Assembly: GCA_040881665.1 (NCBI GenBank)
Contig: JBBECT010000004.1
Span: forward strand, 117,782 to 181,781
From: Actinomycetota bacterium
GTDB lineage: Bacteria > Actinomycetota > UBA4738 > HRBIN12
Reading direction: 5' to 3'
DNA: 64,000 bases
Shown: positions 1-20,935 of the stretch, in pieces
Layout of the letters: the number at the start of each line of letters is the position of its first letter
How positions within the stretch are numbered: the first letter of the stretch is position 1
The notes under the pieces: generated by a model
Database searches by the model: none
Seen by the model: only the letters and a program-made list of their open reading frames with translations
What the model was told of the DNA's origin: nothing
Translations under genes and position numbers: made by a program

Positions 1-88
1 TCGCGGATCAGACCTCGTGTCTGGCGGGGCGGGTAAAGATCTCTGCCTCGATTCTCAGGACGGCGTCGCCGGTAACGACAGCATTCGC

Positions 89-124
89 GGCGGGTCCGGT
101 CGGGATGGGTTCTCCGCGGACCCG
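89..124 (-). terminator. GC-rich hairpin (GCGGGTCCG...CGGACCCGC, 9-bp stem with 18-nt loop) about 36 nt downstream of the metF stop, possible end of the long minus-strand chain
   Basis: Inverted repeat read from the sequence. No U-tract, as is common for actinobacterial terminators. Confidence 0.25.
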
Positions 125-159
125 CGAGACAGCGTGAAGGATGCGGAACTGACCGGTTG

Positions 160-1038
160 TTAGCGTGCCTGGATCGACAGCTCCTCCAGCATCCGGCGCT
201 GCCAGTCGACGGTGCGCTCGACCTGGTTGAAGGTGAACAGGTGGAGCGCCCGCACGTCGGCGTTCGCGTCGGCCAAGACCGGAGCGAGATCCTCCAGCAG
301 ACCGTCGGGGCGGTAGCCACCTTTCCGAACGAGGCGGCCGACCGCCCGACGGTTCTTGGACAGGTACCGGGCCGAGCCTCCGACGCCGATCTTCGTCGCG
401 ATCGACAGCAGCTTCGTCAGGTCGGCGACACCGGGCGTCCCCAGGTGCACGGGGAGCGCGATGCCCGAGGCCCGCAACCACTGGACCCACGACGCGATCG
501 CGGTCGGATCCAAACAGAGCTGGGTGGCGATGTAGTCCGCGTGCACCGACTTGTCGCGCAGCGCGGTGCCGAGCACGACCGCATCGATGTCCACGTGCCC
601 CTCGGGATAGCCGGGGATCCCGATCTCGCTCGGTCGCGGACCGGTCTCCTCGATCGCGCGCAGCAGGGCCAGCCCGTCGGGGAACCCGTCGGCGTCGATC
701 GGGTCCCCGCCGACGACGAAGACCGACGTGAGGCCGGCGACCGCGAGTCGCTGCAGCAGCTCGGCCAGATGCGCGCGATCGCGGATCATCCGGGCGGACA
801 GGTGCGGGATCGCGGGGTGGCCGACGGCGGCCATCTTCTCGGCCAGCTCGATCGTGGCCTCGATCCCTTTCGCCGGCGAGGCCGTCACCGTGACCGTGAC
901 GCCCGGGGGAAGGAACGCCGCCTGCTCACCGACGTCGGAGAGCGGGATCAGCTCGAACTTCGGATCCTCGATCAGGCGTCGCAGCGCCACACGTTCGACC
1001 TCGGAGAGCTTCGCGATCCGGGAGCGGCGCAGAGCCAT
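160..1038 (-). CDS. metF: 5,10-methylenetetrahydrofolate reductase (MetF family), 292 aa
   Basis: C-terminal 292 aa of track ORF 160..1944 reads as MTHFR. ATG (CAT on + strand) verified at 1036-1038. The stop abuts the start region of the upstream MttB-family gene, so this is the last gene of the minus-strand chain. Confidence 0.85.
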   Translation of the reverse strand: MALRRSRIAKLSEVERVALRRLIEDPKFELIPLSDVGEQAAFLPPGVTVTVTASPAKGIEATIELAEKMAAVGHPAIPHLSARMIRDRAHLAELLQRLAVAGLTSVFVVGGDPIDADGFPDGLALLRAIEETGPRPSEIGIPGYPEGHVDIDAVVLGTALRDKSVHADYIATQLCLDPTAIASWVQWLRASGIALPVHLGTPGVADLTKLLSIATKIGVGGSARYLSKNRRAVGRLVRKGGYRPDGLLEDLAPVLADANADVRALHLFTFNQVERTVDWQRRMLEELSIQAR

Positions 1039-2579
1039 CAGACGTTCGAGTCCGGGAAGCTCGCCTTCTTCTTCTCGATCCACTCGAGCAGCTCGCCGTC
1101 CTTCGCTTCGTCGATCGGCGGCGGCTCGTACTCGGCAAGCGTCTTCTTCCACAGTGCATTGGCACGCTCGGCGGCGTCCTTGGAGCCCTCGGCCTCCCAC
1201 TGCTCGAAGGAGTTGTTGTCGGCCACCCCCGAGCGGAAGAAAGCCGACTCGAAGTTCGCGAGCGTGTGCGCCGTCCCGAGGAAGTGCTGCCCGGGCCCGT
1301 TCTCGAGGATCGCGTCGATCGCCTGACCGTTCGGCGACAGGTCGACGCCGTTGGCGAACGCCGCCGCCATCCCGCACTGATCGTGGTCGAGCACGAACTT
1401 CTCGTACCCCATCGCGAGCCCGCCCTCGAGCCACCCGGCGGCGTGCAGCACGAAGTTCACCCCGCCGAGCATCGTGGGCTGAAACGTGTTCGCCGACTCG
1501 TAGGCAGCCTGCGCGTCGGGGAGCTTGGAGGCCGTGAGCGACCCTCCGCTGCGGAACGGTACGCCGAGGCGTCGGGCGAGCGCCGCCAGCGAATAGAGCA
1601 CGAGCGCGGGCTCGGGCGTTCCGAACGTCGGCGCGCCCGATTGCATCGACATCGACGACGCGAACGAGCCCATCACGACCGGCGCCCCCGGACGGAGGAG
1701 TTGGACGTAGGTCATCCCGGCCATCGCCTCGGCGAGCGTCTGGGCGACCGCGCCCGCGACGGTCGCGGGACTCATCGCGCCGGCGAGGATGAACGGGGTC
1801 ATGATCAGCGCCTGGTTCGCCTCGGCGTACGCCTTCGCCGCGCCGAGCATCGTCGAGTCCCACACGAGTGGCGAGTTCGCGTTCACCAGGCTCATGACGA
1901 CCGGATGATCCTCGAGGTACGCCGCGCCGAACAGGATCCTGCACATCTCCACGGTGTCCTGCGCGCGAAGGGGGTGGGTCACCGAGCCCATGAACGCCTT
2001 GTCCGAGTAGCGCATGTGCGCGTACACCATGTCGTAGTGGCGCTTGTTGACGGGCAGGTCCACGGGCTCGCAGACCGTCCCGCCCGAGTGGTGCAGGAAC
2101 GGCGCGGCGTACGCGAGCTTCACGAAGTTGCCGAAGTCCTCGATCGTTCCGTACCGGCGTCCCTGGTCAAGATCGTGCACGAACGGCGAGCCGTAGGCCG
2201 GAGCGAGCACGGTGTGCCTCCCGCCGACCTCCACGTTGTGCTCGGGGTTGCGCGCGTACTGCGTGAAGCTCGACGGTGCCGACGCCCGGATCGTCTCCCG
2301 GCACATCCCGGACGGGAAGCGGACACGTTCCCCGTCGACGTCGGCTCCCGCGCCCTTCAGCAGCTCCAGCGCATCGGGCGACTCACGGAACTCGATCCCC
2401 ACCTGTTCCAGGATCGTGTCGGCGTTGTGCTCCATCAGCTCGAGGCCCTCGGTGTCGAGCACCTCGAGCGGCTTGAGCGTTCGCGTGATGTAGGGGATCC
2501 GCTCGGCGGTGGTCGCCGCCCGCGCCGCTTGCCGTGCCGCCCGTCCTCCGCCGCGCCTTCGTCCGGTCGTCTCGCTCAT
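1038..2579 (-). CDS. MttB-superfamily methyltransferase without in-frame amber codon (non-pyrrolysine; glycine betaine/quaternary amine:corrinoid methyltransferase, MtgB-like), 513 aa
   Basis: C-terminal 513 aa of track ORF 1038..4499. ATG verified at 2577-2579. Uninterrupted reading frame with the TIM-barrel MttB fold. The start overlaps the upstream activase stop by 4 nt (ATGA). Confidence 0.8.
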   Translation of the reverse strand: MSETTGRRRGGGRAARQAARAATTAERIPYITRTLKPLEVLDTEGLELMEHNADTILEQVGIEFRESPDALELLKGAGADVDGERVRFPSGMCRETIRASAPSSFTQYARNPEHNVEVGGRHTVLAPAYGSPFVHDLDQGRRYGTIEDFGNFVKLAYAAPFLHHSGGTVCEPVDLPVNKRHYDMVYAHMRYSDKAFMGSVTHPLRAQDTVEMCRILFGAAYLEDHPVVMSLVNANSPLVWDSTMLGAAKAYAEANQALIMTPFILAGAMSPATVAGAVAQTLAEAMAGMTYVQLLRPGAPVVMGSFASSMSMQSGAPTFGTPEPALVLYSLAALARRLGVPFRSGGSLTASKLPDAQAAYESANTFQPTMLGGVNFVLHAAGWLEGGLAMGYEKFVLDHDQCGMAAAFANGVDLSPNGQAIDAILENGPGQHFLGTAHTLANFESAFFRSGVADNNSFEQWEAEGSKDAAERANALWKKTLAEYEPPPIDEAKDGELLEWIEKKKASFPDSNV

Positions 2580-4615
2580 GCGGTCTCGTCCTTTCCAGAG
2601 GTCGCATCGTCGGAGGCGGCGCGGCGCCGGGAGCGCCCACGTCGACCTCGGTCCGTCGTGGCACCCGTTGCGGTCCGCTCGGGCAAGGACACCGCGGTCC
2701 CCAAGCGCGCGTACGGATCGGTCGCGTGCGGGATGCCCATCGCGTTCACGAAATGCTCCTGGAACCTTGGTTCCACCGCCGTCTCGATCTTCTCGATCCG
2801 GCGGACGACGTCTTCGATCTCGGTCCGCGCCGAGCGGTTGAGCAACGCGATCCGCGCTCCCGTCCCGGCGGCGTTCCCCGCGGCGGTGACCCCGGACGGG
2901 TCGCAATCCGGAACCATCCCGAGGACCAGCGCATGCACCGGATCGATGTGCGCTCCGAACGCGCCCGCCAGCCGGATCCGGTCGACGGTTTCGATCTGCA
3001 GATGATCCATCAGCAGGCGGCACCCGGCCTCGAGCGCGGCCTTCGCGAGCTGGATCGCGCGCACGTCGTTCTGGGTGATCACCAACCGCGGCTCGCCGTC
3101 GTGGAGCACGTAGGAGAACGTCCGTCCGTCCGGGACGATCCGCTCCGAACGCCCGGCGAGCGCGCCGTCGATCGTCCCGTCCGCGGTGAGGATCCGCGCG
3201 AGGAACATCTCGGCCATCACCTCGATGATCCCCGACCCGCACACGCCGGTCACCGACGCGCCCTTGAAGCCCGGCTCGTCCGACCAAGCGTTGCGACCGA
3301 TCACGCGGAACCGCGGCTCGAGCGTCTCGGGATCGATCCGGACCCGCTCGACCGCGCCGGGCGCGGCGCGCTGGCCGCAGCTGATCTGCGCTCCTTCGAA
3401 CGCGGGACCGGTCGGGCTCGATGCGGCGAGCAGTCGGTCGCGGTTGCCGAGCACGATCTCGGCGTTCGTCCCGACGTCGACGAGCAGCTCGACCCCCGCC
3501 CGGAGGTACGGACCTTCGGAGAGCACCATGCCCGCCGTGTCCGCGCCCACGTGCCCGGCGATGCACGGCAGGACGTAGACGCGGGCGCCGGGGTGGACCG
3601 CAAGGTCGAGCTCCTCGGCCCGCAGCCGCACCGCCTCGTCGACGGCGAGCGCGAACGGCGCTCCGCCCAGCTCGGTCGGATCGAGGCCGAGCAGCAGATG
3701 GTGCATGATCGGGTTCCCGACGATCGTGAGCTCCAGGATGTCGGTCCCGTCGATCTCCGCGGTGGCCGCGAGCTCGGCGAGGAGCTGGTTGAGGCACTCC
3801 CGGACGACGGCCGTCAGGTCGGCCTCCGAACCGGGGTTCATCATCACGTACGACACCCGGCTCATCAGATCCTCGCCGAAGCGGATCTGCGGGTTCATCG
3901 ATCCCGCCGATGCGAGCACCTCGCCGGTCGTCAGGTCGCACAGGTGCCCCGCAACCGTCGTCGAACCGACGTCGAACGCGACGCCGACCGCACGGTCGTG
4001 GAAACCCGGCCAGATCCCGGTGATCGTCGCCCCGTCGTGGACGGCGACCGTCACGGCCCACTTCCCCTCGCGCAGCGTGCGTTGGAGGTCGCGGAGCACC
4101 TGGAGATCGGCGGTGAGCCCGGTGAGCGCCCACTCCGTCTCGAGCGCCTCCTCGAGCCGCCGCAGATCGCCGGAGGACTCTCCGAGGTCGGGTTCCCGGA
4201 CCTCGACGTAGTACAGGCGCACGACCGGGTCGATCTCGATCGGGTGCGCGTCCGCCTCCTTGCGCACGACCTGGCGATGGACCTGGCTGTCGGCGGGAAC
4301 GTCGACCACGACGTCGCCGAGCACCTCGCAGGCGCACCCGAGCCGGCGGCCGGACGCGAGCCCCTGCTCCCGCGCGTAGGTCTCCTCGGTCCGCGTGAAC
4401 GCGTTCAAGTGATCGGCGGCGGAGGTGATCTGGTGCTTCGCGTGCTCCCCTTCGCTCACCGTGATCTGGCACCGGCCGCAGATCCCCCGTCCGCCGCACA
4501 CCGAGTCGAGGTCGACCCCGAGCGAACGGGCCGCATCGAGGAGGTTCGTCCCCGCCGGGAACCGGCCCCGCTTGCCCGACGGGGTGAAGACGACGAGCGG
4601 CTCGGCCGTGCTCAC
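2576..4615 (-). CDS. RACE/RamA-type ATP-dependent reductive activase of corrinoid proteins (N-terminal plant-type 2Fe-2S ferredoxin + ASKHA ATPase, COG3894/DUF4445-like), about 680 aa
   Basis: A CGGRGICGRCQ 2Fe-2S motif lies near the N-terminus and a long ASKHA-like ATPase body follows. Proposed start is GTG at 4613-4615 (VSTAEPLVVF...), which overlaps the stop of the upstream pterin-binding gene by 4 nt. The alternative start is the upstream ATG at 4717. Confidence 0.75.
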   Translation of the reverse strand: MSTAEPLVVFTPSGKRGRFPAGTNLLDAARSLGVDLDSVCGGRGICGRCQITVSEGEHAKHQITSAADHLNAFTRTEETYAREQGLASGRRLGCACEVLGDVVVDVPADSQVHRQVVRKEADAHPIEIDPVVRLYYVEVREPDLGESSGDLRRLEEALETEWALTGLTADLQVLRDLQRTLREGKWAVTVAVHDGATITGIWPGFHDRAVGVAFDVGSTTVAGHLCDLTTGEVLASAGSMNPQIRFGEDLMSRVSYVMMNPGSEADLTAVVRECLNQLLAELAATAEIDGTDILELTIVGNPIMHHLLLGLDPTELGGAPFALAVDEAVRLRAEELDLAVHPGARVYVLPCIAGHVGADTAGMVLSEGPYLRAGVELLVDVGTNAEIVLGNRDRLLAASSPTGPAFEGAQISCGQRAAPGAVERVRIDPETLEPRFRVIGRNAWSDEPGFKGASVTGVCGSGIIEVMAEMFLARILTADGTIDGALAGRSERIVPDGRTFSYVLHDGEPRLVITQNDVRAIQLAKAALEAGCRLLMDHLQIETVDRIRLAGAFGAHIDPVHALVLGMVPDCDPSGVTAAGNAAGTGARIALLNRSARTEIEDVVRRIEKIETAVEPRFQEHFVNAMGIPHATDPYARLGTAVSLPERTATGATTDRGRRGRSRRRAASDDATSGKDETA

Positions 4616-5535
4616 GGTGGCGCCGGGTCGGTACCCGCTCCCCGGGCGCGCCGGCGAGCGCCGCGCTCCCGACGACCGCCGCCGTCCGCCGAGGGCTCCC
4701 GGTAGGTGCGGATCCACGCGATGCAGTCGGCGTCGTTGCCCATCATCACGTCGGCGGCCATCACGGCCTGGCGGATCTCTGGATGCAGGGGACTCGTGAT
4801 CGCCGAGGTCAGCCCCGAAGCGATCGCCATCGACAGGAACGCCGCGTTCAGACCACCACGGTTCGGCAGGCCGAAGCTGACGTTCGACGCACCGCAGGTG
4901 GAGTTCACGCCGAGCTCGGTCCGCAACCGCCGGACGAGCTCGAACACCTGCCGGCCCGCGGTGCGCATCGCCCCGATCGGCATCACGAGAGGGTCGACGA
5001 CGATGTCCTCGCGGCCGATGCCGTGATCGGCGGCACGCTCGACGATCCGCTTCGCGACGGCGAATCGCTCGTTCGGGTCCTGGGAGATGCCGGTCTCGTC
5101 GTTCGTGATCGCGACGACGGCCGCCCCGTGTCTCGCCACGAGCGGCAGGACGGCCTCGAGACGCTCTTCCTCGCCCGTCACCGAGTTCACGAGCGCCTTG
5201 CCCTGATAGGCGGACAGGCCGGCCTCGAGCGCAGCGACGATCGACGAGTCGATCGAGAGCGGGACGTCGGTCAGGGACTGCACGAGCTTGATCGTCTCCG
5301 CCAGGATCGCCGGCTCGTCCGCGAGCGGGATCCCCGCGTTGACGTCGAGCATCTGCGCGCCCGCCTCGACCTGGGCGTTCGTGTCGACGATCACGGTGGA
5401 GAAGTCGCCGGCCTTCATCTGCTCGGCGAGCGTCTTGCGGCCGGTCGGGTTGATCCGCTCCCCGATCACCACGAACGGACGGTCGAACCCCAGGACGACC
5501 TCCTTCGTCGCCGAGCTGAGGACGGTCTCGGTCAT
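4612..5535 (-). CDS. pterin-binding methyltransferase (methylcorrinoid:tetrahydrofolate methyltransferase, MtgA/MtrH/AcsE-like), 307 aa
   Basis: Pterin-binding (DHPS-like) domain. ATG verified at 5533-5535, with a GGAGG ribosome-binding site 5-9 nt upstream on the minus strand. Start M is residue 129 of track ORF 4612..5919. Confidence 0.8.
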   Translation of the reverse strand: MTETVLSSATKEVVLGFDRPFVVIGERINPTGRKTLAEQMKAGDFSTVIVDTNAQVEAGAQMLDVNAGIPLADEPAILAETIKLVQSLTDVPLSIDSSIVAALEAGLSAYQGKALVNSVTGEEERLEAVLPLVARHGAAVVAITNDETGISQDPNERFAVAKRIVERAADHGIGREDIVVDPLVMPIGAMRTAGRQVFELVRRLRTELGVNSTCGASNVSFGLPNRGGLNAAFLSMAIASGLTSAITSPLHPEIRQAVMAADVMMGNDADCIAWIRTYREPSADGGGRRERGARRRARGAGTDPAPP

Positions 5536-5843
5536 GCGGGGCCTCCGTCGGCGCGCCGGCCGCCGCTGCGGATCAGGGCGCGCAGCGCCTCGTCGGGATG
5601 CGCGGCCTCGATCCGTTCCGCCTCCGCATGCGCCTCGGCCTCGAGGTCGTCTCCGCACGGGCGGGCGTCGCGCGCCCACTCGGCCAGATACTCGTCGGTG
5701 CCGATCAGTCCGATGCTCGTCGCGGCGGCGTCGATCGCCTCCTGGAACCGGTCGGTCAACTGGACCCGCGCCGACTCCCTCCCCTGCTTTGCCGTGACCT
5801 GCGCGGGGATGTCGCGCCAGCGGATCACCGTGAGCTCGGCCAT
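5532..5843 (-). CDS. hypothetical protein, 103 aa, acidic and soluble, translationally coupled between the corrinoid protein and the pterin methyltransferase
   Basis: Normal amino-acid composition, not Arg/Pro-rich. It starts 5 nt after the corrinoid-protein stop and its stop overlaps the start of the downstream gene by 4 nt. No recognisable motif. Confidence 0.55.
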   Translation of the reverse strand: MAELTVIRWRDIPAQVTAKQGRESARVQLTDRFQEAIDAAATSIGLIGTDEYLAEWARDARPCGDDLEAEAHAEAERIEAAHPDEALRALIRSGGRRADGGPA

Positions 5844-5848
5844 CGCGA

Positions 5849-6547
5849 TCAGGCCCCCGCCGCCGCGCGGCGCGCGAGCACGAGCGCCTGCGCCGTCTCG
5901 GCGGCGATCGCGGCGTCACGGCAGTAGGCGTCGGCGCCCACGGTCTTGCCGAACTCCTCGTTCAGCGGCGCGCCACCCACCAGAACGATGTAGTCCTCGC
6001 GGAGGCCCTTGTCGACGAGCTCGTCGATCACGACCTTCATATACGGCATCGTCGTCGTCAGCAGCGCCGACATCCCGAGGATGTCGGGCTCGTGTTCCTC
6101 GAGCGCCTCGAGGTAGTTCTCCACCGGATTGTTGATGCCGAGATCGACGACCTCGAACCCGGCGCCTTCGAGCATCATCGACACGAGGTTCTTCCCGATG
6201 TCGTGGATGTCGCCCTTGACGGTGCCGATCACGACCTTGCCGACCCGTTCCACACCGGTCTCGGCGAGCAGCGGCCGGAGGATCTCCATCCCGGCCTTCA
6301 TCGCGTTCGCGGCCAGCAGCACCTCCGGGACGAACAGGATGCCGTCGCGGAAGTCGATCCCGACGATCCGCATCCCATCGACCAGGGCGTCGTTCAGCAC
6401 CCGGTCGGCCGCCCATCCGCGACCCAGGAGGATGTTCGTTCCCTCGACGATCTCGTCGGCCATGCCGTCGTAGAGATCGTCGTGCATCTGCTTGGTGAGC
6501 TCGTCGTCGGGGAGGGTCGACAGGTCCAGTTCCTGCTCGTCGCTCAT
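5849..6547 (-). CDS. cobalamin (B12)-binding corrinoid protein (MtgC/MtbC/MtmC-like), 232 aa
   Basis: The B12-binding DxHxxG motif is present as DIHDIGKN, with a Rossmann-like B12-binding domain and an N-terminal cap helix domain. Confidence 0.85.
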   Translation of the reverse strand: MSDEQELDLSTLPDDELTKQMHDDLYDGMADEIVEGTNILLGRGWAADRVLNDALVDGMRIVGIDFRDGILFVPEVLLAANAMKAGMEILRPLLAETGVERVGKVVIGTVKGDIHDIGKNLVSMMLEGAGFEVVDLGINNPVENYLEALEEHEPDILGMSALLTTTMPYMKVVIDELVDKGLREDYIVLVGGAPLNEEFGKTVGADAYCRDAAIAAETAQALVLARRAAAGA

Positions 6548-6556
6548 CGGGCGCTC

Positions 6557-9016
6557 CTAGCTCCTCGGGCGTTCGTTCTTGGGGTCGAACAAGGGATCGG
6601 CCGCGACCGTCGCGGCATACCGCTCGTCGAAGTACTCGATCCGGACGGGGGTTCCCTCGACGGCCAGCTCGACCGGCAGGTACCCGTAGGCGATCCCTCG
6701 ACCGATCGAGTAGCCGTGGTTGGCCGAGGTGACGTAGGAGACCACCGCTCCCTGTGCGTCGCGGATCGGCTCCTTGCCGAGCACGACCGCGGACGGATCG
6801 TCGAGGGTCATACACGCGAGCTTGTGGCTCGAGCCACCTCGGGCGATCCGCTCGAGCGCGTCGCGGCCCTGGAACCCGCCCTTGTCCATCCGCACCGCGA
6901 ACCCGAGGCCGGCCTCGAACGGATCGTGCTCGGTGTGGATGTCCTGACCCCAGAGGCGGTAGCCCTTCTCCAGGCGCAGGGAGTCGAACGCCCCGAGGCC
7001 CGCCGCCACGATCCCGTGCTCACGCCCCGCGTCGAAGAGCAGCTCCCAGGCCCGCGCGCCCATCTCGAACGGGCCGTACACCTCCCATCCGAGCTCACCG
7101 ACGTAGGAGATCCGCTGGGCGAACACGGGCACCTCGCCCAGGTGGATCGGCCGTCCGGTGAGGTACCCGAACGCCTCGTTCGACACGTCGTCGGTCGTCA
7201 CCGCCGACAGCACGTCGCGTGCACGCGGCCCCCAGAGTCCGAAGCAGAACGAGCTCGTCGTGCGATCGACGATCCCGACCCGCTCACCGTCGCGGGCCTG
7301 CGCGCGCAGCCACGCGAGGTCGTGCATCGCCGATCCGCCACCGGTCACGACCTGGAACAGGTCCTCGGCCAGCCGCGTCACGGTCAGGTCGCACCGGATG
7401 CCACCCCGGGGCGTGAGCATCGCCGTGTAGATCACCGACCCGACGGCCCGGTCGATCCGGTTCGCGCAGATCCGCTCCAGGAATGCGAGCGCGCCGGCAC
7501 CACCGACCGCGAACTTTGCGAACGGCGTGATGTCGAACAGCGCGACACGTTCGCGGGTCGCCAGGTGTTCGGCGCCCTCGATCGGCGACCAGTGCTGCGC
7601 TGCCCATCCCGATCGCCGCTCCCACGGGTCGCCACGGAGCAGGTCCCCGTTGGACGCGAACCATTGGGGGCGCTCCCACCCCGCTCCCACCACGAACTCC
7701 GCGTCGAGCGCGGCGTGCGCCTCGTAGGCGGGGGTCAGGCGGAGCCTGCGTGGGCGCTCCATCTGCTGGCGGGGATGGATGATGTCGTAGACCTCGCGGT
7801 AGTTCTGCGCACCGCGTTCGCGGACGTACGGCGGGGTCGTCATGTACGGGTAGAACCGGTTCGCGTCGGCCTCGGCGAGGTCCATGCTCGGCTCGCCGGT
7901 CGCGATCCACTCGGCGACCTGACGGCCCATGCCGCCTCCCTGCGTGACCCAGACCGCTTCGCAGATCCAGAATCCGCGCACGTCGGTCGACTCGCCGACG
8001 ATCGAGCCCATGTCGGGCGTGAACGAGAACATCCCGTTGATCGCGGTGGACAGGTCGATCCGATCCGTCAGGGCCGGCATGATCCGGGTCGATTCGCGTT
8101 CGCACTCGGAGAAGTGCTCCGGCGTGAACGGCATCACCGACGGCATAGGACCGGGCTCGGACGGGTGGCGGATGTCTTCCGGGTCGGTGAGCACGGGTTC
8201 GTGGCGATAGTTGCCCAGCGCGTAGCGGTCCTCGCGCTGGCGGTAGTACAGCGAGACGTCCTGGTGACGCAGGATCGGGTGAGCAATCTCGTCTGTCTGA
8301 CCCGCGAGCTCGGGGAGCGGCTCGGTCCACACGAGCTGGTGTTGCACGGCCGCGAGCGGGATCGGCACCCCCGCCATCGCCCCGAGCCGCGGCCCCCAGA
8401 TCCCCGCGCACACGAGCACCTGCTCGCACTCGACGTCGCCCCGGTCGGTCCGCACACCGTGGACGTGTCCCTCTCGGATGTCGAACCCGGTGACCGTCAC
8501 GCCACCCTCGAACGCGGCGCCCCTGGCCTCCGCCTTCCGCGCGTACGCGGCGGCGAGACGAACGGCCTTCGCAGCTCCGTCGGAGGGGACGAAGAGCGAG
8601 CCGTGGATCGTCGACGGGTCGAGCAGAGGGATCTTCGCGGCGGTCTCGCCGGGGTCCAACAGCTCGGCACCCTCGATCCCGTAGGCGCGGGCGAACCCGA
8701 GACGGCGCTTCAGCTCCTCCATGCGCTCGTGTGTAGTCGCGATCTCGATCCCGCCGACGCCGTACCAGCCCGGCTGCCCGTCGAGAGCGAGCTCGGCGTA
8801 CTGGGCGACCGTGTCCTGCGCGATCCGGCACATCGTCCGGGATCCGTTCGTCTGGAACACCAGTCCCGGGGCGTGTGAGGTCGACCCGCCGGTCTCGAAA
8901 AGCGGTCCCTGATCGAGAACGAGGACATCCGTCACGCCGAGTTCGGCCAGGTGGCGGGCGGCGCTCGTGCCCACGATCCCCGCTCCCACGATCACCAGTT
9001 GGGCCCGATCGCGCAT
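6557..9016 (-). CDS. dimethylglycine oxidase/dehydrogenase (FAD-dependent oxidase domain fused to a GcvT-like folate-binding aminomethyltransferase domain), 820 aa
   Basis: N-terminal dinucleotide-binding motif VIVGAGIVGTSAARHLAELG and a C-terminal GcvT-like domain. ATG verified at 9014-9016. Start M is residue 39 of track ORF 6557..9130. Confidence 0.8.
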   Translation of the reverse strand: MRDRAQLVIVGAGIVGTSAARHLAELGVTDVLVLDQGPLFETGGSTSHAPGLVFQTNGSRTMCRIAQDTVAQYAELALDGQPGWYGVGGIEIATTHERMEELKRRLGFARAYGIEGAELLDPGETAAKIPLLDPSTIHGSLFVPSDGAAKAVRLAAAYARKAEARGAAFEGGVTVTGFDIREGHVHGVRTDRGDVECEQVLVCAGIWGPRLGAMAGVPIPLAAVQHQLVWTEPLPELAGQTDEIAHPILRHQDVSLYYRQREDRYALGNYRHEPVLTDPEDIRHPSEPGPMPSVMPFTPEHFSECERESTRIMPALTDRIDLSTAINGMFSFTPDMGSIVGESTDVRGFWICEAVWVTQGGGMGRQVAEWIATGEPSMDLAEADANRFYPYMTTPPYVRERGAQNYREVYDIIHPRQQMERPRRLRLTPAYEAHAALDAEFVVGAGWERPQWFASNGDLLRGDPWERRSGWAAQHWSPIEGAEHLATRERVALFDITPFAKFAVGGAGALAFLERICANRIDRAVGSVIYTAMLTPRGGIRCDLTVTRLAEDLFQVVTGGGSAMHDLAWLRAQARDGERVGIVDRTTSSFCFGLWGPRARDVLSAVTTDDVSNEAFGYLTGRPIHLGEVPVFAQRISYVGELGWEVYGPFEMGARAWELLFDAGREHGIVAAGLGAFDSLRLEKGYRLWGQDIHTEHDPFEAGLGFAVRMDKGGFQGRDALERIARGGSSHKLACMTLDDPSAVVLGKEPIRDAQGAVVSYVTSANHGYSIGRGIAYGYLPVELAVEGTPVRIEYFDERYAATVAADPLFDPKNERPRS

Positions 9017-9050
9017 CCGGTTCCCCGCGCTCCTTAAGCTTCTCGCCCGT

Positions 9051-9070
9051 GCGACGGCGTACGCCGTCGC
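9051..9070. promoter_or_regulatory. 20-bp perfect palindrome GCGACGGCGTACGCCGTCGC in the ALDH-DMG oxidase intercistronic gap
   Basis: Seen in the sequence. On the minus-strand transcript it would form an 8-9 bp GC stem, but no U-tract follows, so it is more likely an operator or an RNA processing/stability hairpin than an intrinsic terminator. Confidence 0.35.
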
Positions 9071-9131
9071 CGGCACCGATGGTCGGCCCGCGTGGTTGCG
9101 CTGACAACCCACCGGTTGCGACCTCAGCAAC

Positions 9132-10586
9132 TCAGCTCTCGCCGAGGTTGAGCACCACGGTCTTGAGCTCGGTCAGGCGCTCCATCGAGTAGCGCCCTCC
9201 GACACGGCCGATACCGCTCTTGGAGCCCGCGCCGCCGCCGAAGGGAAGGTGGGACTCCCAGTAGTTGGTGCCCTCGTTCACGTTCACCCACCCGGTGCGC
9301 ACCCGCTCGGCAAACCGTAGCCCCCGCGCCAGGTCGGCGGTGAAGATCGCCGACAGCAGCCCGTACTCCGAGTCGTCGACGAGCGCCACCGCCTCGTCCT
9401 CGCTGCGGATCGTCGAGACCGGAACAACCGGACCGAACGTCTCCTCGCGCGCCACCTGCATCCGGTCGGTCACGCCGTCGAGGACCGTCGCCTCGAAGAA
9501 CAGCTCGCTGCCGTGCTCGGGCGCACGACGGCCGCCGGTGACGACGGAGGCACCTGCCTCGACCGCTTCGGCCACGTGCCGCTCGGTCTTGTCGGCGACA
9601 CCGGCGTTGTTCACCGGACCCATCGTGGTCGCGTCGTCCAAGGGATCGCCGAGGTGGATCTTCTCCGCGACGGCGGCGGAAAGCTTGCCGACGTACACGT
9701 CGTGGACGGTTTCGTGGACGAGGATCCGTTCACCCGCCGTGCAGCTCTGTCCGGCGTTCAGGAAGCACGCCGTCAGCGTCGCCTCGACCGCCGCGTCGAT
9801 GTCGCCGTCCTCCATCACGACGAGCGGTCCGTTGCCACCCATCTCCAGCAGCAGATCCTTGCCGGCCGCGCGCTCCGCGACGCGATGACCGGTCGCGATC
9901 GAGCCGATGAACCCGATCGCGCTCGTCCCGGGATTCGCGGCGACCTCGTCGCCGACGACCGCGCCCTCGCCGGTCACCATGTTGAAGACGCCCGCCGGCA
10001 GGTCGGCCTCGACGATGCACTCGGCGAAGCGAACGGCGCACACCGACGTCGAGGGCGCGGGCACCCAGACGATCGCGTTCCCGTAGGCGAGCGCCGGGGC
10101 CAGGATCTCCCCCGGCATGGTGTACGGCCAGTTCCACGGACTGATGATCCCGACGACGCCGCGCGGCACGCGGTAGAGCAGCACGCGCTTGTTCGCATCG
10201 AACGACGGCGGCATGATCCCGTCCATTCGGATCGCGTCGGCCGCGGCCATCTCGAAGTAGCCGAGTAGTTCCTCGACCTCGTCGTTGGCCTCGGCGGCCA
10301 GGGGCTTGCCCTGATCGATCGCGAGCGTGCGCGCGAGCTCGATGCGGTTGGCGTCGATCGCCGCGGCGATCCGTCGCATCCCTGCCGCCCGGTCGAAGGC
10401 CGACATCCCGGCCCACCCACGACGCGCACGCTGGGCAGCGCCGATCGCGCGCTGCACGTCCCCGCGCGTGCCGCTGGGCACGGTTGCGACCACCTCGCCC
10501 GAGCGCGGGCTCGTCGCTTCGAGCGTCGCGCCGTCGGACGCGTCGGCCCACGTTCCGTCGATGTACAGCTTCAGGTTCTCGCTCAT
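9132..10586 (-). CDS. NAD(P)-dependent aldehyde dehydrogenase, candidate betaine-aldehyde dehydrogenase by context, 484 aa
   Basis: ALDH superfamily with catalytic Cys in QSCTAG and an ELGGNGP motif. ATG verified at 10584-10586, with GGGGAG upstream. Confidence 0.85.
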   Translation of the reverse strand: MSENLKLYIDGTWADASDGATLEATSPRSGEVVATVPSGTRGDVQRAIGAAQRARRGWAGMSAFDRAAGMRRIAAAIDANRIELARTLAIDQGKPLAAEANDEVEELLGYFEMAAADAIRMDGIMPPSFDANKRVLLYRVPRGVVGIISPWNWPYTMPGEILAPALAYGNAIVWVPAPSTSVCAVRFAECIVEADLPAGVFNMVTGEGAVVGDEVAANPGTSAIGFIGSIATGHRVAERAAGKDLLLEMGGNGPLVVMEDGDIDAAVEATLTACFLNAGQSCTAGERILVHETVHDVYVGKLSAAVAEKIHLGDPLDDATTMGPVNNAGVADKTERHVAEAVEAGASVVTGGRRAPEHGSELFFEATVLDGVTDRMQVAREETFGPVVPVSTIRSEDEAVALVDDSEYGLLSAIFTADLARGLRFAERVRTGWVNVNEGTNYWESHLPFGGGAGSKSGIGRVGGRYSMERLTELKTVVLNLGES

Positions 10587-10679
10587 CGCTCCCCGTCCCC
10601 GCAACGGCGACGGGGGCGGCCCATGGACCGCCCCCGTCTCACCGCCGTGCTTCCCGTGTTCGGACCGTCCTGTTCGTGC

Positions 10680-11690
10680 TCAGGCCGCCGGCATCCAGGA
10701 GTCGACGACGTCCTGGTTGGCGTCGATCCAGGTCTGCGCGGCCTCCTCGGGATCCGCTCCCTCCTGCAGCTCGAGGGCGACCGAGTTCTGGTCCTCTTCG
10801 GTCCACTGGAAGTTGGAGAGGAACTCGAACGCCGCCGGGTCCTTCTCCGCGAAGTCCACGCTGAACGCCTTGTAGAGCACGTCGTCGGCGTAGTCGCAGT
10901 CATAGCCCGCCGCCTCGTCCGGATCGTCGAGCGCGATCTGCTCGCACTCCTCATCGAACTCCGGCAACTCGACCTCGACGAGGTCGTACTTCGCATTGGC
11001 CCACTGCGGGGTCCACCAGTACATGACGATCGGCTCTTCGTTCTTCACGGCGTTGTCGAGCGCCGACAGCGACGCGGTCTCCGATCCGGAGTACACGACC
11101 TCGAGGTCCAGTCCCAGACTCTCGATGATCGCCTCGTCGAAGATCGAGTACGTCGTGTCCGCACCGAGGAAGCGGCCCTTGTCGCCCGTCTCCGCCGTTG
11201 AGAACGCGTCGGCCTCGGTGAAGCCCTCGTACGTGGCGTACTCGGGGGTATCCTCGACGACGTAGGACGGCACGAACCATCCGATGTTGCCGGTGATGCC
11301 GAGCTCGCCTCCGTCGACGACGGTGCCGGCCTTCTCGATGTACTGCGACCGGTCCTTCGCATGGCCGGAGGGCCAGACCTCGAGCGTCGCGTCGACATCA
11401 CCCGAGGCCATCGCGGGGAACTGCGCGGATTCGTTGATCTCCTGGAGCTCGACCTCGCAACCCATCTCCTCCTGCATCACCTGTTGGACGACGACCGCGT
11501 TCGCCTCGGCCCCGATCCACGGGTTCACGGCGATCACGATCGGGTCGTCGGTGGAGCACTGCGCGACGCTCGCCGTGTCGCCGTCGCCTCCGGTGTCCTC
11601 GGGTGTGTCCTCGACGTCGCTACACGCGGCGCCCACGAGCGCGAGTCCCGCCACGCAGGCGACGAGCGTCAGCCACTTCGAACCCTTCAT
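10680..11690 (-). CDS. glycine betaine/proline betaine ABC transporter substrate-binding lipoprotein (OpuAC/ProX family)
   Basis: Signal peptide with a lipobox (LVGAAC S) followed by an OpuAC-like body. ATG verified at 11688-11690, with a GGAGGGAGG ribosome-binding site. Confidence 0.8.
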   Translation of the reverse strand: MKGSKWLTLVACVAGLALVGAACSDVEDTPEDTGGDGDTASVAQCSTDDPIVIAVNPWIGAEANAVVVQQVMQEEMGCEVELQEINESAQFPAMASGDVDATLEVWPSGHAKDRSQYIEKAGTVVDGGELGITGNIGWFVPSYVVEDTPEYATYEGFTEADAFSTAETGDKGRFLGADTTYSIFDEAIIESLGLDLEVVYSGSETASLSALDNAVKNEEPIVMYWWTPQWANAKYDLVEVELPEFDEECEQIALDDPDEAAGYDCDYADDVLYKAFSVDFAEKDPAAFEFLSNFQWTEEDQNSVALELQEGADPEEAAQTWIDANQDVVDSWMPAA

Positions 11691-11787
11691 GCGTCCTCCC
11701 TCCGTCGGCACGGCCGCTGCCGCTGCCGCTGCCTCACCCCGGCCGTCGCCACCGCTCCGGCCGCTGCTTCCTGGTACGCCATTCGAG

Positions 11788-13878
11788 TCATCTCGAGCTC
11801 TGATCGCCCGATCCGCCCGATCCGCCCGATCCGTTCGCTCCGTTCGCTCCGCCCACGATCGCGCGCAGCTTGGTCCACGGCGCGAACCCCATCTCCCCGA
11901 CCGGCCCGCGCAGGGTGCGCGGCGCCGATCCCATCGCCTGCGTGATGCGATCGAGCACGATCGCCAGCAGCAGGATGCACGTACCGGCGACCACCCCGCG
12001 GCCGATCTGCTGCTTGCCGAGCGCGAACACCACCTCTTGTCCCAGCCCGGCCGCGCCGATCAGCCCGGCGATGATCACGACGGACAGGACCATCATGATC
12101 GTCTGGTTGATCCCGAGCAGGATCGTCGGTCGCGCGAGCGGCAGTTCGACCTTCGCGAGCATCTGCTTCGAGGTCGCACCGTACGAGCGACCGGCCTCGG
12201 TGATCTCGGCCGGAACCTGGCGGATCCCGAGGTTGGTCAGCCGCACGCCCACGGGCAGCGCGTAGATCAGCGACGCGATGATCGCCGGGACGCGTCCGGG
12301 CTCGAAGAGGAGCAGCACCGGCACCAGGTAGACGAATGCGGGCATCGTCTGCATCGCGTCGAGCACGGGCCGTGACCACCGCTCGAACCGGTCGCTGCGC
12401 GCGGCGAGGATGCCGAGCGGGATCGCGAACGCCGCGGTGATCGCGACCGCGACGAGCACCTGGGTAAGGGTCCCCATCGACAGATCCCACATCCCGAGGA
12501 ACCCGAGCGCGGCGATGCACGCGAAGCACCCGATCGCGAGCTTGATCCCGGACACCCGCCACGCGAGCAGGGCGAACGCACCCGCGACCATCCACCACGG
12601 GACGCCGACGAACAGCGCCTCCAGCGGATCGAGGACGTAGATGATGAGGAAGTCGTTGATCGCGCCCGTGACCCCGGCAAGGTTGGTCTGGGACCACTCG
12701 ACGATCGCGTTCGCCGGCGTGGCGACCGAGGTCTCGAGCGCCTCGGGGAACACCTGCTGGCGGAGCACCTCCCGGCCGATCAGCACCGCCGCGACGGTCA
12801 CCACGACCGCTGCCACCACTTGCATCCGCCGGGTCACCACGAGTCCGCCGATCCGCAGGGGGGGCGTCGTGCGGCGATCCCGGTCGCTCCAGGCGGTCGT
12901 CACGCGATCGAGCACGATCGCCATCACGACGATCGCGATCCCGCCGTTGAGCGCCTCCCCGACGTTGAAGTCCTGGAGACCCTCGATCACCGCCTGACCG
13001 AGTCCCCCGGCGCCGATGAACGCGGCGATCACGACGAGGCCGAGCGCCATCATGATCGTCTGGTTCACCCCGAGCATGATCGAGGGCTTGGCCATCGGGA
13101 TCTGCACCGACCGCAGCTTCTGCCGTTCGGTCGCACCGAAGGAATCGGCCACCTCGAGCGAGGTCTCCGGAACGTTGCGGATCCCGAGCGCGGTCAGCCG
13201 GATCGCGGGCGGCAGGGCGAACGCGAGCGTGGCGAGCAACGCCGGCGGGGCCCCGACCCCGAACAGCAGCACGAACGGCAACAGGTAGGAGTAGGCGGGA
13301 ATCGTCTGCATCGCGTCGAGGATCGGCCGGAGGGCCCGCTCGACGCGGGGACGCCGCCCCGCCCAGATCCCCAACGGGATCCCGACCAGTACGGCGAGTG
13401 AGACCGACACGATGATCAGGGCGAGCGTCTCGAGGCTCGCCTCCCACACGCCGAGCAGCCCGAAGCTCGCGACGCCGAGGCCGGCGAGCAGCGCCATCTT
13501 CCAGCCCGCGAGCACCCCCGCGAGCGCTCCCGCCCCGACCACGAGGCCGAGCCAGGTCATCCGCTCCAACGCGGCCACCGTGCTGTCGATCGCCGCCTCG
13601 ACCGCGTCCGAGATCGGCGTCAGGAACAGCGTGAACAACGGGCTGGTGCGGGAGTTCTCCACCGTCCAGTCGCGGAACGCATCCAGTGGAGCGGTGACGT
13701 CGATCACCAACGACTCGGGGAACCCCGCGCGCAGCCATACGAGCCCGATCACCGCGACCACGACGGCGACCACCGCCCAAGCGATGCGACGCGGCCAGGG
13801 GCTCGCCGCTCGATGGAACACCGCCGGCGCGACCTCGCCCACCACGGGGGACGGCGTCCGCGGCGGAGCGATCGCCAT
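11788..13878 (-). CDS. glycine betaine ABC transporter permease, tandem-fused double ProW/OpuAB domain, 696 aa
   Basis: Two consecutive ABC-2 type permease domains each carrying the EAA-like loop. The C-terminal low-complexity tail [17 protein letters not shown] is encoded by tandem 9-nt repeats. Confidence 0.85.
11802..11855 (-). repeat. in-frame degenerate 9-nt tandem repeats (about 6 units: gatcgcccg atccgcccg atccgcccg atccgttcg ctccgttcg ctccgccca) encoding the [15 protein letters not shown] tail of the fused ProW permease
   Basis: Seen in the sequence at the 3' end of CDS 11788-13878. Confidence 0.5.
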
Positions 13879-13881
13879 CCG

Positions 13882-14895
13882 CTAGCGCTCCTCGACCATC
13901 GCGCCGAGCACCCGCGACCGATCCACGATGCCGAGCACCCGCTCGTCCTCGACCACGCGCAGCGTGAGGTCTTCGTCGACGACGAGCGGCAGCAGCTCCT
14001 GCACGACGGTCGTGGGTGCGACATCCGGTCCGTAGCGGCGTCCGTCCGTTGACGGCGGCGCCACCATGATCGAACGGGCCGTGAGCACGTGGGCGCGCGG
14101 AACGTCGCGGACGAAGTCGGCAACGTAGTCGTCGGCGGGAGCGGACACGACCTCCTCGGGGGTTCCGACCTGGACGAACCCGCCGTCTTTCATGATCGCG
14201 ATCCGGTCGCCGAGCTTCAGCGCCTCCATCAGGTCGTGGGTGATGAAGACCATCGTCTTGCGGAGCTCGCGCTGCAGGCGGATCACCTCCTCCTGCATGT
14301 CGCGGCGGATCAGCGGATCCAGGGCACTGAACGGCTCGTCGAACAGCATGATCTCCGGATCGGTCGCGAGCGCTCGGGCGAGCCCGACGCGCTGCTGCAT
14401 CCCACCGGAGAGCTCGTCGGGGTAGGACTCGCCCCAGCCTCCGAGTCCGACCACCTCGAGAACCTCGTTCGCGCGCGCGGTGCGGGCGTCTTTGTCCACC
14501 CCTTGCACCTCGAGGCCGAACGCGGCGTTGTCGACGATCCGCCGGTGCGGGAACAGACCGAAGTGCTGGAACACCATGCTGACCCTCGTCCGGCGGAGCT
14601 CCCGCAGACGATCTGCGCTCAGCTGCAGGATGTCGTCGCCGTCGATCGCCACGCTGCCGGCGGTCGGCTCGATCAGCCGTGAGATGCATCGCACGAGCGT
14701 GGACTTCCCGGAGCCCGACAGCCCCATCACGACGAAGACCTCGCCGGTCCCGACGTCGAACGAGACGTCCCGGACGGCGGCGACACAGCCGGTCTTCTCC
14801 AGCAGTTCGGCGCGGGCGAGGTTCGCGTCCGGCGAGCCGATGATCCGTTCGGCCTTCGGACCGTAGACCTTCCACACGTCACGACACGACAGCAT
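13882..14895 (-). CDS. glycine betaine/proline ABC transporter ATP-binding protein (ProV/OpuAA) with C-terminal CBS domains
   Basis: Walker A motif GLSGSGKST and signature LSGGMQQRV. The N-terminus VWKVYG aligns with ProV LYKIFG when the start is ATG at 14893-14895. The track's alternative start is GTG at 14961. Confidence 0.85.
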
Positions 14896-15036
14896 CAGGT
14901 CGGCAGGGGGATCGGTCCGTTCGTTCCCGCTAGACACCCTGGTCGAAGATACTGGGAGCACCTCCTCCCGTGCGCAAGGCAGGGGTTGCGGTCATCGCAA
15001 CCATCCGCGCACTCGTCAACCGGACGCCGCGGCCAG

Positions 15037-16823: not shown

Positions 16824-17765
16824 TCACGCGCCACCGATACCGAGCAGGATGAGCCCGACGACCACGAGCCCGATGCCCGCGTACTGGTTCGGCGCGGGGC
16901 GCTCCCGGAACAGGGTCACGCCGCCGAGGACCGGGATCAATGTGAAGGTTGCCGACACGGCCGCCGTGATCGATACGAGCCCCAGCTCGCTGCCGCGGGC
17001 GTACGCCCAGATGCCGAACACGTCGGCGATCCCGACGGCGATCGCGAGCACCACGTTGCGGCGCGTCGTCCCCGATGGCGCGAGGATCCGCTCCGCGCGC
17101 GATCGATCCCGCCCGGGAGCCTCGGAGGCCAGCATCTCGTCGACCACGCCGTGCTCGACGACGGGGGTCGCCCGGCGCCGCACCGTCAGGACGACCGCGA
17201 TCAGCACGAGCGAGCCGATCCGCGACACGATCGTCGGCGGGAACACGCCGTAGTCCTGCGCGTAGCCGCCCGTCGCGAAGGCGCCGACCCCGAACCCGAT
17301 CATCGCCGCCACGGCGTACGGGATCCCTCGGCGGCTCCCGGCTTCCGCGACGCCGAGACGCCGGATGTCGGTCGAGGTCAGCACGACCCCGACCAACGTG
17401 GCCACGATCCCGGCGATCTCGAGCCCGCCCAGCGACTCTCCGAGGACGGTCACCGCGAGGAGCACCGTGACGACGCCGAAAGCCGAGGCGATCGGCGAGA
17501 CGAGGGCGATCGGCCCCAGCTCCAGCCCGCGGTAGAGGCCGAAATAGGCGACCCCCGCGCACAACCCCGTCCCGAACAACACGAGCGTGCCGCCTGCGGG
17601 GAGGTCCCACGGCGGGGAGAGCACCGCGAAGAGCAGGAGGAACCCGGCGACGCCGGTCAGCTGGGCGATGACGGTGACCGGACGGCTGCCCATCCGGCGC
17701 GAGGCGATCGCGGCAGAGAGGTCGGAGACGCCCCATCCGAGTGCGGCGAGCAGCCCGAAGAACAT
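16824..17765 (-). CDS. EamA/DMT-family membrane transporter
   Basis: About ten predicted transmembrane helices arranged as a duplicated EamA-like domain. Confidence 0.75.
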   Translation of the reverse strand: MFFGLLAALGWGVSDLSAAIASRRMGSRPVTVIAQLTGVAGFLLLFAVLSPPWDLPAGGTLVLFGTGLCAGVAYFGLYRGLELGPIALVSPIASAFGVVTVLLAVTVLGESLGGLEIAGIVATLVGVVLTSTDIRRLGVAEAGSRRGIPYAVAAMIGFGVGAFATGGYAQDYGVFPPTIVSRIGSLVLIAVVLTVRRRATPVVEHGVVDEMLASEAPGRDRSRAERILAPSGTTRRNVVLAIAVGIADVFGIWAYARGSELGLVSITAAVSATFTLIPVLGGVTLFRERPAPNQYAGIGLVVVGLILLGIGGA

Positions 17766-17804
17766 CTGCCGTGGCCGCCTACCGGCCGCCGCACCGTGTC
17801 GGGA

Positions 17805-20767: not shown

Positions 20768-20935
20768 CGCGTGACGGTCCCCACCTGCGCGCGGGAACCG
20801 GGCCGCCGCATCATACAAGAGCAGGTCAGGGCACCGATCCATGCCCGACGCGGGCTCCTCGCGCCGGCCGATCGACCCGAAGGAGCATCCGCGCGTGCAT
20901 TGCCGAAGGGCGGGACCGTGGCCCAGGATGGACGG

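Follow-up and report, generated by a model that had tools for sequence, protein, structure and literature searches.

Gene Content of the mtgB Locus

The methyltransferase gene described here, designated mtgB, is located on the minus strand of a 64,000-nucleotide stretch of an Actinomycetota metagenome-assembled genome (MAG) (contig JBBECT010000004.1, GCA_040881665.1; the whole stretch is referred to below as the window), where it was found within an operon of overlapping genes, and its product probably demethylates glycine betaine. The frame runs from an ATG at 2579-2577 to a TGA at 1040-1038, comprises 513 sense codons with no in-frame TAG, TGA or TAA, and is preceded by a Shine-Dalgarno sequence (GGAAAGGA). 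The uninterrupted 513-codon frame lacking TAG that the initial annotation had placed at 1038-2579, with no strand named, is thus real and belongs to the minus strand; the plus-strand translation of the same interval was discarded as an arginine-rich antisense artefact. The GC contents at codon positions 1, 2 and 3 (0.66, 0.48 and 0.92, respectively) are a coding signature for a 70% GC genome. The public contig JBBDTR010000005.1 (GCA_040904315.1, an Actinomycetota MAG) is 100% identical to window positions 1-12579, and its public gene calls give the same boundaries for every gene of the module, including the 513-residue MtgB. The context genes named in the initial annotation (a corrinoid protein at 5849-6547, BetA, OpuA and an N,N-dimethylglycine (DMG) oxidase) were also confirmed by profile and Protein Data Bank (PDB) matches.

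All genes from 16701 down to 160 were found on the minus strand, with betA transcribed first and metF last (Table 1). Overlaps of 1-4 nt occur at the junctions PF13769/mtgD (ATGA), mtgD/RACo (GTGA), RACo/mtgB (ATGA) and mtgB/metF (TGATG), while the gaps to mtgC and to the DMG oxidase gene measure 5-9 nt; the overlaps suggest translational coupling within the module. The cofactor motifs of the module proteins are all intact. The permease of the OpuA-type importer (11788-13878, minus strand, 696 residues) contains two BPD_transp_1 stretches and is a fused double permease, and the metF-like gene at 160-1038 presented a weak match to the Pfam methylenetetrahydrofolate reductase (MTHFR) profile (36 bits), with PDB entry 7XG9 (130 bits) as its best structural match. 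The aldehyde dehydrogenase at 9132-10586 is, by context, a candidate betaine-aldehyde dehydrogenase. On the same public contig (JBBDTR010000005.1; L084, 12712-20817), immediately to the left of window position 1, the genes soxG-soxA-soxD-soxB were found together with an IclR regulator and a pyridoxal-phosphate-dependent (PALP) enzyme; this heterotetrameric sarcosine oxidase, which is preceded by an ATPase_2/DUF234 gene, completes the betaine-to-glycine route. The gene set of the region therefore covers the conversion of choline via betaine aldehyde to glycine betaine and that of DMG via sarcosine to glycine, and the sole step lacking another candidate enzyme in the region is that from betaine to DMG. 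No GbcA-type monooxygenase above the equivalog cut-off, no second MttB paralogue and no homocysteine-binding MtgE/bmt were found in the window, and an Rfam scan of the window gave no matches at gathering thresholds, whether to a cobalamin riboswitch or to other RNA. The glycine betaine context pointed out in the initial annotation proved stronger than noted there, as mtgB shares an overlapping operon with the genes for DMG oxidase, MtgC, MtgD, RACo and MTHFR, with soxBDAG directly beyond the window edge.

Table 1. Genes and pocket codons of the mtgB locus, in window coordinates (aa, amino acids; Pyl, pyrrolysine; DhMtgB, MtgB of Desulfitobacterium hafniense; GC3, GC at third codon positions).
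Feature	Position	Strand	Evidence
mtgB, non-Pyl MttB-superfamily methyltransferase, 513 aa	1038-2579	-	PF06253; similarity to 4YYC and DhMtgB; no in-frame stop; GC3 0.92; same public gene call
Tyr129 codon TAC, equivalent to DhMtgB Y97 (cation-pi to betaine nitrogen)	2193-2195	-	alignment to 9YCE
Arg343 codon CGC, equivalent to DhMtgB R312 (carboxylate salt bridge)	1551-1553	-	alignment
Leu348 codon CTC, at the Pyl position of Methanosarcina barkeri MttB	1536-1538	-	alignment to 7XCL (Pyl printed as X)
His379 codon CAC, equivalent to DhMtgB H348 (carboxylate hydrogen bond)	1443-1445	-	alignment
Trp383 to Gly387 (WLEGG); Gly387 at DhMtgB F356 position, Trp383 at I352 position	1419-1433	-	alignment
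metF2-like short MTHFR, 292 aa	160-1038	-	PF02219; PDB 7XG9 130 bits
RACo/RamA-type ATP-dependent reductive activase, 679 aa, N-terminal [2Fe-2S] ferredoxin domain	2576-4615	-	Fer2 + RACo_linker + Raco_middle + RACo_C_ter; AcsV 398 bits; Cx5Cx2C...C motif
mtgD, methyl-corrinoid:tetrahydrofolate methyltransferase (pterin-binding), 307 aa	4612-5535	-	PF00809; NF005719 350 bits, cut-off 259
Small PF13769 ("Virulence_fact") protein, 103 aa	5532-5843	-	PF13769 79.7 bits; 4-nt overlap with mtgD
mtgC, cobalamin-binding corrinoid protein, 232 aa	5849-6547	-	B12-binding_2 + B12-binding; DIHDIG, SALL and GG motifs
DMG oxidase, 819 aa	6557-9016	-	1PJ5 (Arthrobacter DMG oxidase) 752 bits, full length; DAO + FAO_M + GCV_T + GCV_T_C
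Aldehyde dehydrogenase, 484 aa, candidate betaine-aldehyde dehydrogenase	9132-10586	-	PF00171; betaine-aldehyde dehydrogenase model TIGR01804 370 bits, below cut-off of 668
OpuA-type ABC betaine/choline importer: OpuAC binding protein 10680-11690, fused permease 11788-13878, ATPase 13882-14961	10680-14961	-	PF04069; PF00528 (two stretches); PF00005
betA, choline dehydrogenase, 554 aa	15037-16701	-	TIGR01810 betA equivalog 822 bits, cut-off 732

Family Membership, Fold and Conservation

The mtgB product is a non-Pyl member of the MttB superfamily. The Pfam MTTB profile (PF06253) spans the whole protein (residues 9-509 against profile positions 1-500 of 500; 744.5 bits, E = 4e-224), and the superfamily is a very large one, with 8,835 clusters at 50% identity at E <= 1e-3 and 1,470 at E <= 1e-30. 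The non-Pyl assignment made in the initial annotation was borne out by the presence of Leu348 (CTC) at the Pyl position and by a score of 258.1 bits against the Pyl-MttB equivalog model TIGR02369, the cut-off of which is 525. In similarity searches the protein of PDB entry 4YYC, from Sinorhizobium meliloti, ranked highest (711 bits), followed by DhMtgB (399 bits) and M. barkeri MttB (110 bits), and the clustering with Pyl-MttB that the initial annotation had named as its refuting scenario is excluded by these scores. An AlphaFold2 model built from a 28-sequence alignment (predicted template-modelling score 0.76, mean predicted local distance difference test (pLDDT) 70) was ranked by Foldseek in the same order, with 4YYC (TM 0.77-0.82) ahead of DhMtgB (0.73-0.80) and MttB (0.71-0.77). 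The model served for fold ranking only and not for pocket geometry, with pLDDT values below 50 across residues 346-388; the TIM-barrel fold is nevertheless safe, given the 63.8% identity of MtgB to 4YYC, despite the moderate quality of the model.

A deposited Actinomycetota MAG protein was found to match MtgB at 100% identity, and more than 8,000 relatives were scored, the best 120 of them all at 78-100% identity; in public records the protein bears the label "trimethylamine methyltransferase family". When identities were taken by phylum from species-representative genomes, the highest values were shown by Actinomycetes MAG orthologues (81-83%), followed by those from Thermoleophilia/Gaiella and Chloroflexota (73-78%), by single Verrucomicrobiota and Methylomirabilota MAG orthologues (about 75%) and by Gamma-, Beta- and Deltaproteobacteria, including Halomonas, Denitromonas, Halioglobus and SAR324 (66-72%). 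The identity fell to 42.5% with DhMtgB (2QNE/9YCE) and to 32%, over the C-terminal half only, with Pyl-MttB. In a neighbour-joining tree MtgB fell into a subgroup of Actinomycetota sequences, next to which stood those of Thermoleophilia, followed by Chloroflexota and then by Proteobacteria with 4YYC, with short branches within the orthologue group and a long branch to DhMtgB. Judged by these comparisons, MtgB belongs, as an ordinary and highly conserved member, to a single tight family of orthologues. The description of the sequence as clearly divergent in the initial annotation is contradicted by the identical MAG protein, by orthologues at 66-83% identity across phyla and by the 63.8% identity to 4YYC, and the distinct actinobacterial clade proposed with it amounts to a shallow subgroup of the tree, that is, to a clade in the trivial taxonomic sense. 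The Ala/Gly-rich bias noted there is present and mild, the Ala+Gly content being 23.2% in MtgB versus 21.5% in 4YYC.

The Predicted Betaine Pocket

The betaine site of DhMtgB has been defined by mutagenesis and by a betaine-bound structure, with Y97 and F356 as the cation-pi contacts and with the carboxylate held by R312 and H348 (PMC13080624). The active-site alignment that the initial annotation had called for gave a divided result: three of the four contacts are kept in MtgB, Y97, R312 and H348 being retained as Y129, R343 and H379, while the F356 position is occupied by Gly387. The corresponding motif reads HAAGWLEGG in MtgB and 4YYC versus HTAGILQYF in DhMtgB. Residues Y129, R343, H379, W383 and G387 were found to be invariant in 80 orthologues and 4YYC, as was L348 save for one Leu-to-Phe replacement in Halomonas. 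MtgB is filed in the MttB superfamily and in the 4YYC-type aerobic MtgB group, and not in the DhMtgB-type subfamily, because the aromatic residue at the F356 position is absent; it is nonetheless likely to work in the manner of DhMtgB while standing outside that subfamily.

The placement of the second aromatic residue was surveyed in 74 full-length sequences, comprising 70 superfamily representatives and locus paralogues (24-65% identity), MtgB itself, 4YYC and DhMtgB. Aromatic residues at positions 383 and 387 were mutually exclusive, with 35 sequences presenting one at 383 only, 25 at 387 only, 14 at neither and none at both (Fisher p of about 4e-10, uncorrected for phylogeny), and the DhMtgB-like sequences (38-61% identical to DhMtgB) belong to the 387-aromatic class. 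This distribution suggests that the second cation-pi wall may stand at either of two positions, which lie four residues from each other. Among sequences of the Trp383 class, residue 129 differs between subfamilies (Y, G, A, L, S, Q, T and others), which suggests, at the level of sequence, that this position helps to set specificity within the class and that the clade of MtgB keeps the betaine-type tyrosine. A Steroidobacteraceae contig (L049, 1132-2574) was found to carry an orthologue (71% identity, Tyr129) together with a 56% paralogue that has the same WLEGG and a glycine at position 129.

Synteny and Neighbouring Genes

The synteny set comprised 80 related loci, and neighbour counts were drawn from the 44 of them that offered 20 kb of context or more. 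The order MtgC-(DUF1638)-PF13769-MtgD-RACo-MtgB-MetF was found to recur throughout Actinomycetota and Chloroflexota, and the same module occurs rearranged in Halomonas, Halioglobus, SAR324 and other Proteobacteria. MtgC, MtgD and RACo are encoded together within 10 kb of the mtgB orthologue in 31 of the 44 loci, across several phyla, and a MetF-like gene follows mtgB in 25. DMG oxidase, sarcosine oxidase or BetA was found within 10 kb in 18/44 loci, which take in all the closest Actinomycetes relatives as well as Comamonadaceae loci where the orthologue adjoins soxABDG and an MtgE-like gene. MtgE/bmt was present within 10 kb in only three of the 44. Identities across related loci were 75-85% for MtgD and 70-94% for MtgC, and the gene set seen in S. 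meliloti, with a GlxA-family regulator added, is carried by a plasmid of Paracoccus methylovorus. A gene for DUF1638, the second reactivation protein of the proteobacterial system, lies between mtgC and the PF13769 gene in 25/44 loci (compare L002, L011 and L017-L044); none was found between these genes in the window (5843-5849) or in the nearest Actinomycetes relatives (L001, L003, L007, L009, L013 and L015). Conservation of the PF13769 protein extends to 29/44 loci (also at L081 7111-7413) and to the cluster of S. meliloti, its gene standing between mtgC/DUF1638 and mtgD in different phyla. A PDB search with the window protein gave no homologue, the protein is without mention in PMC12478193, and it is a candidate for an unassigned component of the aerobic MtgBCD clusters.

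Distant MttB paralogues (26-27% identity) were also observed in four loci (L020 1713-3041, L034 16372-17703, L042 18749-20113 and L070 7714-9048). They lack every betaine-pocket residue (G/S, S/Q/G, M/L, E/S, M and L/V being present instead) and directly adjoin DAO-GcvT fusion genes resembling dimethylglycine dehydrogenase, a different and uncharacterised pairing of the MttB family within the same genomes. In the window itself, the interval directly upstream of betA (16824-21271, minus strand) encodes an EamA-family transporter, an NDP-forming acyl-CoA synthetase (CoA_binding + Succ_CoA_lig + ATP-grasp_5) and an enoyl-CoA hydratase. A second amine-catabolic cluster was found at 24114-36108, with a polyamine-type ABC transporter (substrate-binding protein 24114-25481, permease 25553-26581, ATPase 27569-28693) and a major facilitator superfamily transporter. 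It also encodes a Rieske oxygenase (30159-31307), whose nearest match is the carnitine monooxygenase CntA (6Y8J, 179 bits), and this gene is followed by those for an aldehyde dehydrogenase resembling betaine-aldehyde dehydrogenase (31926-33428), a short-chain dehydrogenase/reductase and a DAO-family oxidase (34639-36108). The cluster suggests catabolism of a further quaternary amine. The Rieske oxygenase was considered as a GbcA-type betaine monooxygenase, which would have offered a second, B12-independent route, and was rejected, with a score of 184 against the GbcA model (cut-off 670) and with CntA as its nearest match. Further features, unrelated to mtgB, are two large PAS-GGDEF-EAL signalling proteins and a phosphoribulokinase/uridine-kinase-family gene adjoining a transketolase gene (43492-45789 (+), 56363-59752 (-) and 53372-56366).

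Comparison with Known Systems

The 4YYC protein is identical over 506/506 residues to the product of an S. meliloti gene that stands beside genes for a cobalamin-binding protein, DUF1638, PF13769, MTHFR, a methyltetrahydrofolate:cobalamin methyltransferase and an ASKHA (RACo) protein, with bmt 6 kb away, an arrangement described as co-localised mtgBCDE (Mausz et al. 2025, PMC12478193). MtgB is orthologous to the mtgB product of the described cluster, because it is 63.8% identical to 4YYC, which is the protein of the S. meliloti gene in that neighbourhood. The two proteins align end to end, with identical pocket residues (Y/R/L/H/W/G) and HAAGWLEGG, and both clusters contain the cobalamin-binding protein, PF13769, the methyltetrahydrofolate:cobalamin methyltransferase, the ASKHA/RACo activase and MTHFR. 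The differences lie in the host, which is an Actinomycetota MAG here and an alphaproteobacterium there, and in the arrangement of the genes, which in the window form one overlapping operon joined to the DMG oxidase gene, beside sox, betA and opuA. In addition, DUF1638 and bmt/mtgE are absent from the window neighbourhood, and its MetF is short (292 residues), whereas the S. meliloti and proteobacterial clusters carry a pair of MTHFR and MTHFR_C. The features of the aerobic MtgBCD system (PMC12478193) that were found in the window comprise PF06253, MtgC and MtgD in one overlapping operon, a RamA/RACo activase and a MetF2 paralogue. The window system and that of D. hafniense, an anaerobe using the betaine pathway for energy metabolism, differ in the aerobic type of the former.

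DhMtgB is the founding non-Pyl member of the superfamily. It presents the same fold and a full-length alignment with MtgB, with a leucine at the Pyl position and the equivalents Y97, R312 and H348, and it also works with a corrinoid protein, a methyltetrahydrofolate methyltransferase and a reductive activase. It differs in having F356 and I352 where MtgB has Gly387 and Trp383, and its type of corrinoid protein differs as well, the window MtgC scoring 205 against a cut-off of 370 for the MtgC_2 model. M. barkeri MttB (7XCL) shares the superfamily, the TIM-barrel fold and the methylation of a corrinoid protein, but has Pyl, encoded by a UAG codon, in place of Leu348 and a tyrosine at both the Arg343 and the His379 positions. 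MtpB, MtcB, MtyB and MthB of Eubacterium limosum, the substrates of which are proline betaine, carnitine, gamma-butyrobetaine and choline/phosphocholine, respectively, are non-Pyl members like MtgB and keep the arginine equivalent to R312; they are set apart by the published description of an aromatic pair that is not conserved, in contrast to the invariant Tyr129 of the MtgB orthologues (PMC13080624).

Proposed Function and Alternative Explanations

The aerobic MtgBCD pathway for betaine was described in 2025 and established in Ruegeria pomeroyi, where knockouts of mtgC and mtgD abolished growth on betaine and where MtgB1/2, MetF2, RamA and DUF1638 were induced (PMC12478193). Additionally, a mtgB1 gbcAB double mutant of Phaeobacter inhibens did not grow on betaine (bioRxiv 10.64898/2025.12.19.695462). 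When the Paracoccus orthologue was used as bait for the MtgB proteins of P. inhibens (MtgB1, PGA1_RS07270) and R. pomeroyi (SPO2108 and SPO2134), only Paracoccus and Rhizobiales proteins were present among the matches listed, and a literature search on the S. meliloti locus tags gave no relevant functional data. The mtgB product of the window probably acts in the same type of pathway, in which glycine betaine would give up a methyl group to Co(I)-MtgC and DMG would be released to the adjoining oxidase, with MtgD, MetF and RACo completing the route. Choline or betaine would be imported by OpuA, and choline would be converted to glycine betaine by BetA and the aldehyde dehydrogenase. Betaine would then be bound in the TIM-barrel pocket of MtgB, with Arg343 and His379 holding the carboxylate and with Tyr129 and Trp383, the latter presumably in place of F356, forming the cation-pi walls, and one N-methyl group would be moved to the Co(I) corrinoid of MtgC, yielding DMG. 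From methyl-Co(III)-MtgC, the methyl group would be handed on to tetrahydrofolate by MtgD; the MetF-like reductase, if C1 units flow in this direction, would then oxidise methyltetrahydrofolate to methylenetetrahydrofolate. Accidental oxidation of the corrinoid is a likely hazard in an aerobe, and the resulting Co(II)-MtgC would be re-reduced by the RACo activase with ATP and its [2Fe-2S] cluster. DMG would finally be converted via sarcosine to glycine by DMG oxidase and SoxBDAG.

Several points weigh against betaine as the substrate. MttB paralogues with different substrates occur side by side in many genomes, the aldehyde dehydrogenase and MtgC score below their NCBIfam equivalog cut-offs, and the ligand of 4YYC is listed as unknown. 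The validated contact F356 of DhMtgB corresponds to Gly387 in MtgB, and the F356L replacement raised the Km of DhMtgB about 800-fold (PMC13080624). The proposed compensation by Trp383 follows from a covariation uncorrected for phylogeny, and the pocket segment in question (residues 346-388) is the one with pLDDT values below 50 in the AlphaFold2 model. The specificity of MtgB had been described as unknown in the initial annotation; this was overstated in view of the aerobic pathway published in 2025 (PMC12478193), although it stands in so far as no member of the WLEGG clade has been assayed in vitro.

The loss of F356 from the validated betaine motif is the chief argument for a different substrate, whereby MtgB would demethylate another quaternary amine (proline betaine, carnitine, gamma-butyrobetaine, choline/phosphocholine or another betaine) or a wider range of amines, with betaine handled elsewhere in the genome. 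Known non-Pyl members do have diverse substrates (PMC13080624, PMC8604678), and specificity determinants exist beyond the four-residue motif, as DhMtgB rejects proline betaine (PMC13080624). OpuA-type transporters are, from general knowledge of OpuA and ProU, also carriers of proline betaine and choline, and the CntA-like Rieske oxygenase indicates that the organism handles other quaternary amines. Such a substrate is nevertheless unlikely, since BetA upstream and DMG oxidase and soxBDAG downstream fit only betaine as the intermediate, and since the operon contains no enzymes for N-methylproline, norcarnitine or similar products. Moreover, MtcB, MtpB, MthB and MtyB do not conserve the aromatic pair (PMC13080624), while Tyr129 is invariant in the MtgB orthologues, and the paralogues of the Trp383 class differ exactly at position 129 (G, A, Q, S or T).

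Betaine demethylation may also be compared with two explanations that concern the role of the module or the state of the enzyme. In R. pomeroyi and P. inhibens, methionine synthesis also makes use of MtgC and MtgD (PMC12478193), and MtgD is predicted to act in both directions, so that the MtgC/MtgD/RACo module might mainly be a split cobalamin-dependent methionine synthase, with the MttB protein as an accessory, non-catabolic input of methyl groups. This is highly improbable for a module flanked by catabolic genes (DMG oxidase, Sox and BetA) and followed by MetF, with MtgE/bmt absent from the window and nearby in only 3/44 related loci, and it would leave the reaction of MtgB itself unchanged. 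The Pfam MTTB domain and the public family label would also suit an inactive relic of a Pyl-dependent trimethylamine methyltransferase that had lost its UAG codon. Practically no likelihood is left to this explanation, which was rejected as effectively refuted by the similarity ranking (110 bits and 32% identity over the C-terminal half for M. barkeri MttB versus 711 bits for 4YYC; 258 versus a cut-off of 525 for TIGR02369) and by the conservation across phyla, the 66-83% identity and the invariant pocket residues indicating strong purifying selection on a gene that overlaps intact partner genes.

Significance

Glycine betaine is a major osmolyte and a source of carbon, nitrogen and energy. 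A cobalamin-dependent aerobic route for the first step of its demethylation was recognised only in 2025, and in marine Proteobacteria only; in the literature searched on this route, mentions of Actinomycetota were confined to their share of metagenomic reads and to Pfam counts. Aerobic betaine demethylation by MtgBCD is already known, and the compact operon of this soil Actinomycetota MAG adds a member to that kind of system, not a new kind; mildly new are the pocket variant that extends across the clade, the neighbourhood lacking DUF1638 and MtgE, and the conserved, unexplained PF13769 protein. The replacement of F356 by glycine, with a tryptophan one turn earlier, presents a concrete structure-function question for which the crystal structure 4YYC exists. 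It is conceivable, though doubtful, that the swapped-aromatic Trp383/Gly387 pocket, common to 4YYC and every orthologue, makes the substrates of this very abundant aerobic clade differ from, or range more widely than, those of the D. hafniense enzyme. If so, the blanket labelling of MtgB as a betaine enzyme in soil and ocean metagenomes would be partly wrong, and the actinobacterial operon, with its short MetF and PF13769 protein and without DUF1638 and MtgE, would be a distinct, purely catabolic version. The mtgB locus and dozens of syntenic loci show that the module is also present in soil Actinomycetota and Chloroflexota, in many cases as part of an operon for the whole route from choline to glycine, and thereby extend the pathway, and its demand for vitamin B12, to abundant soil lineages.

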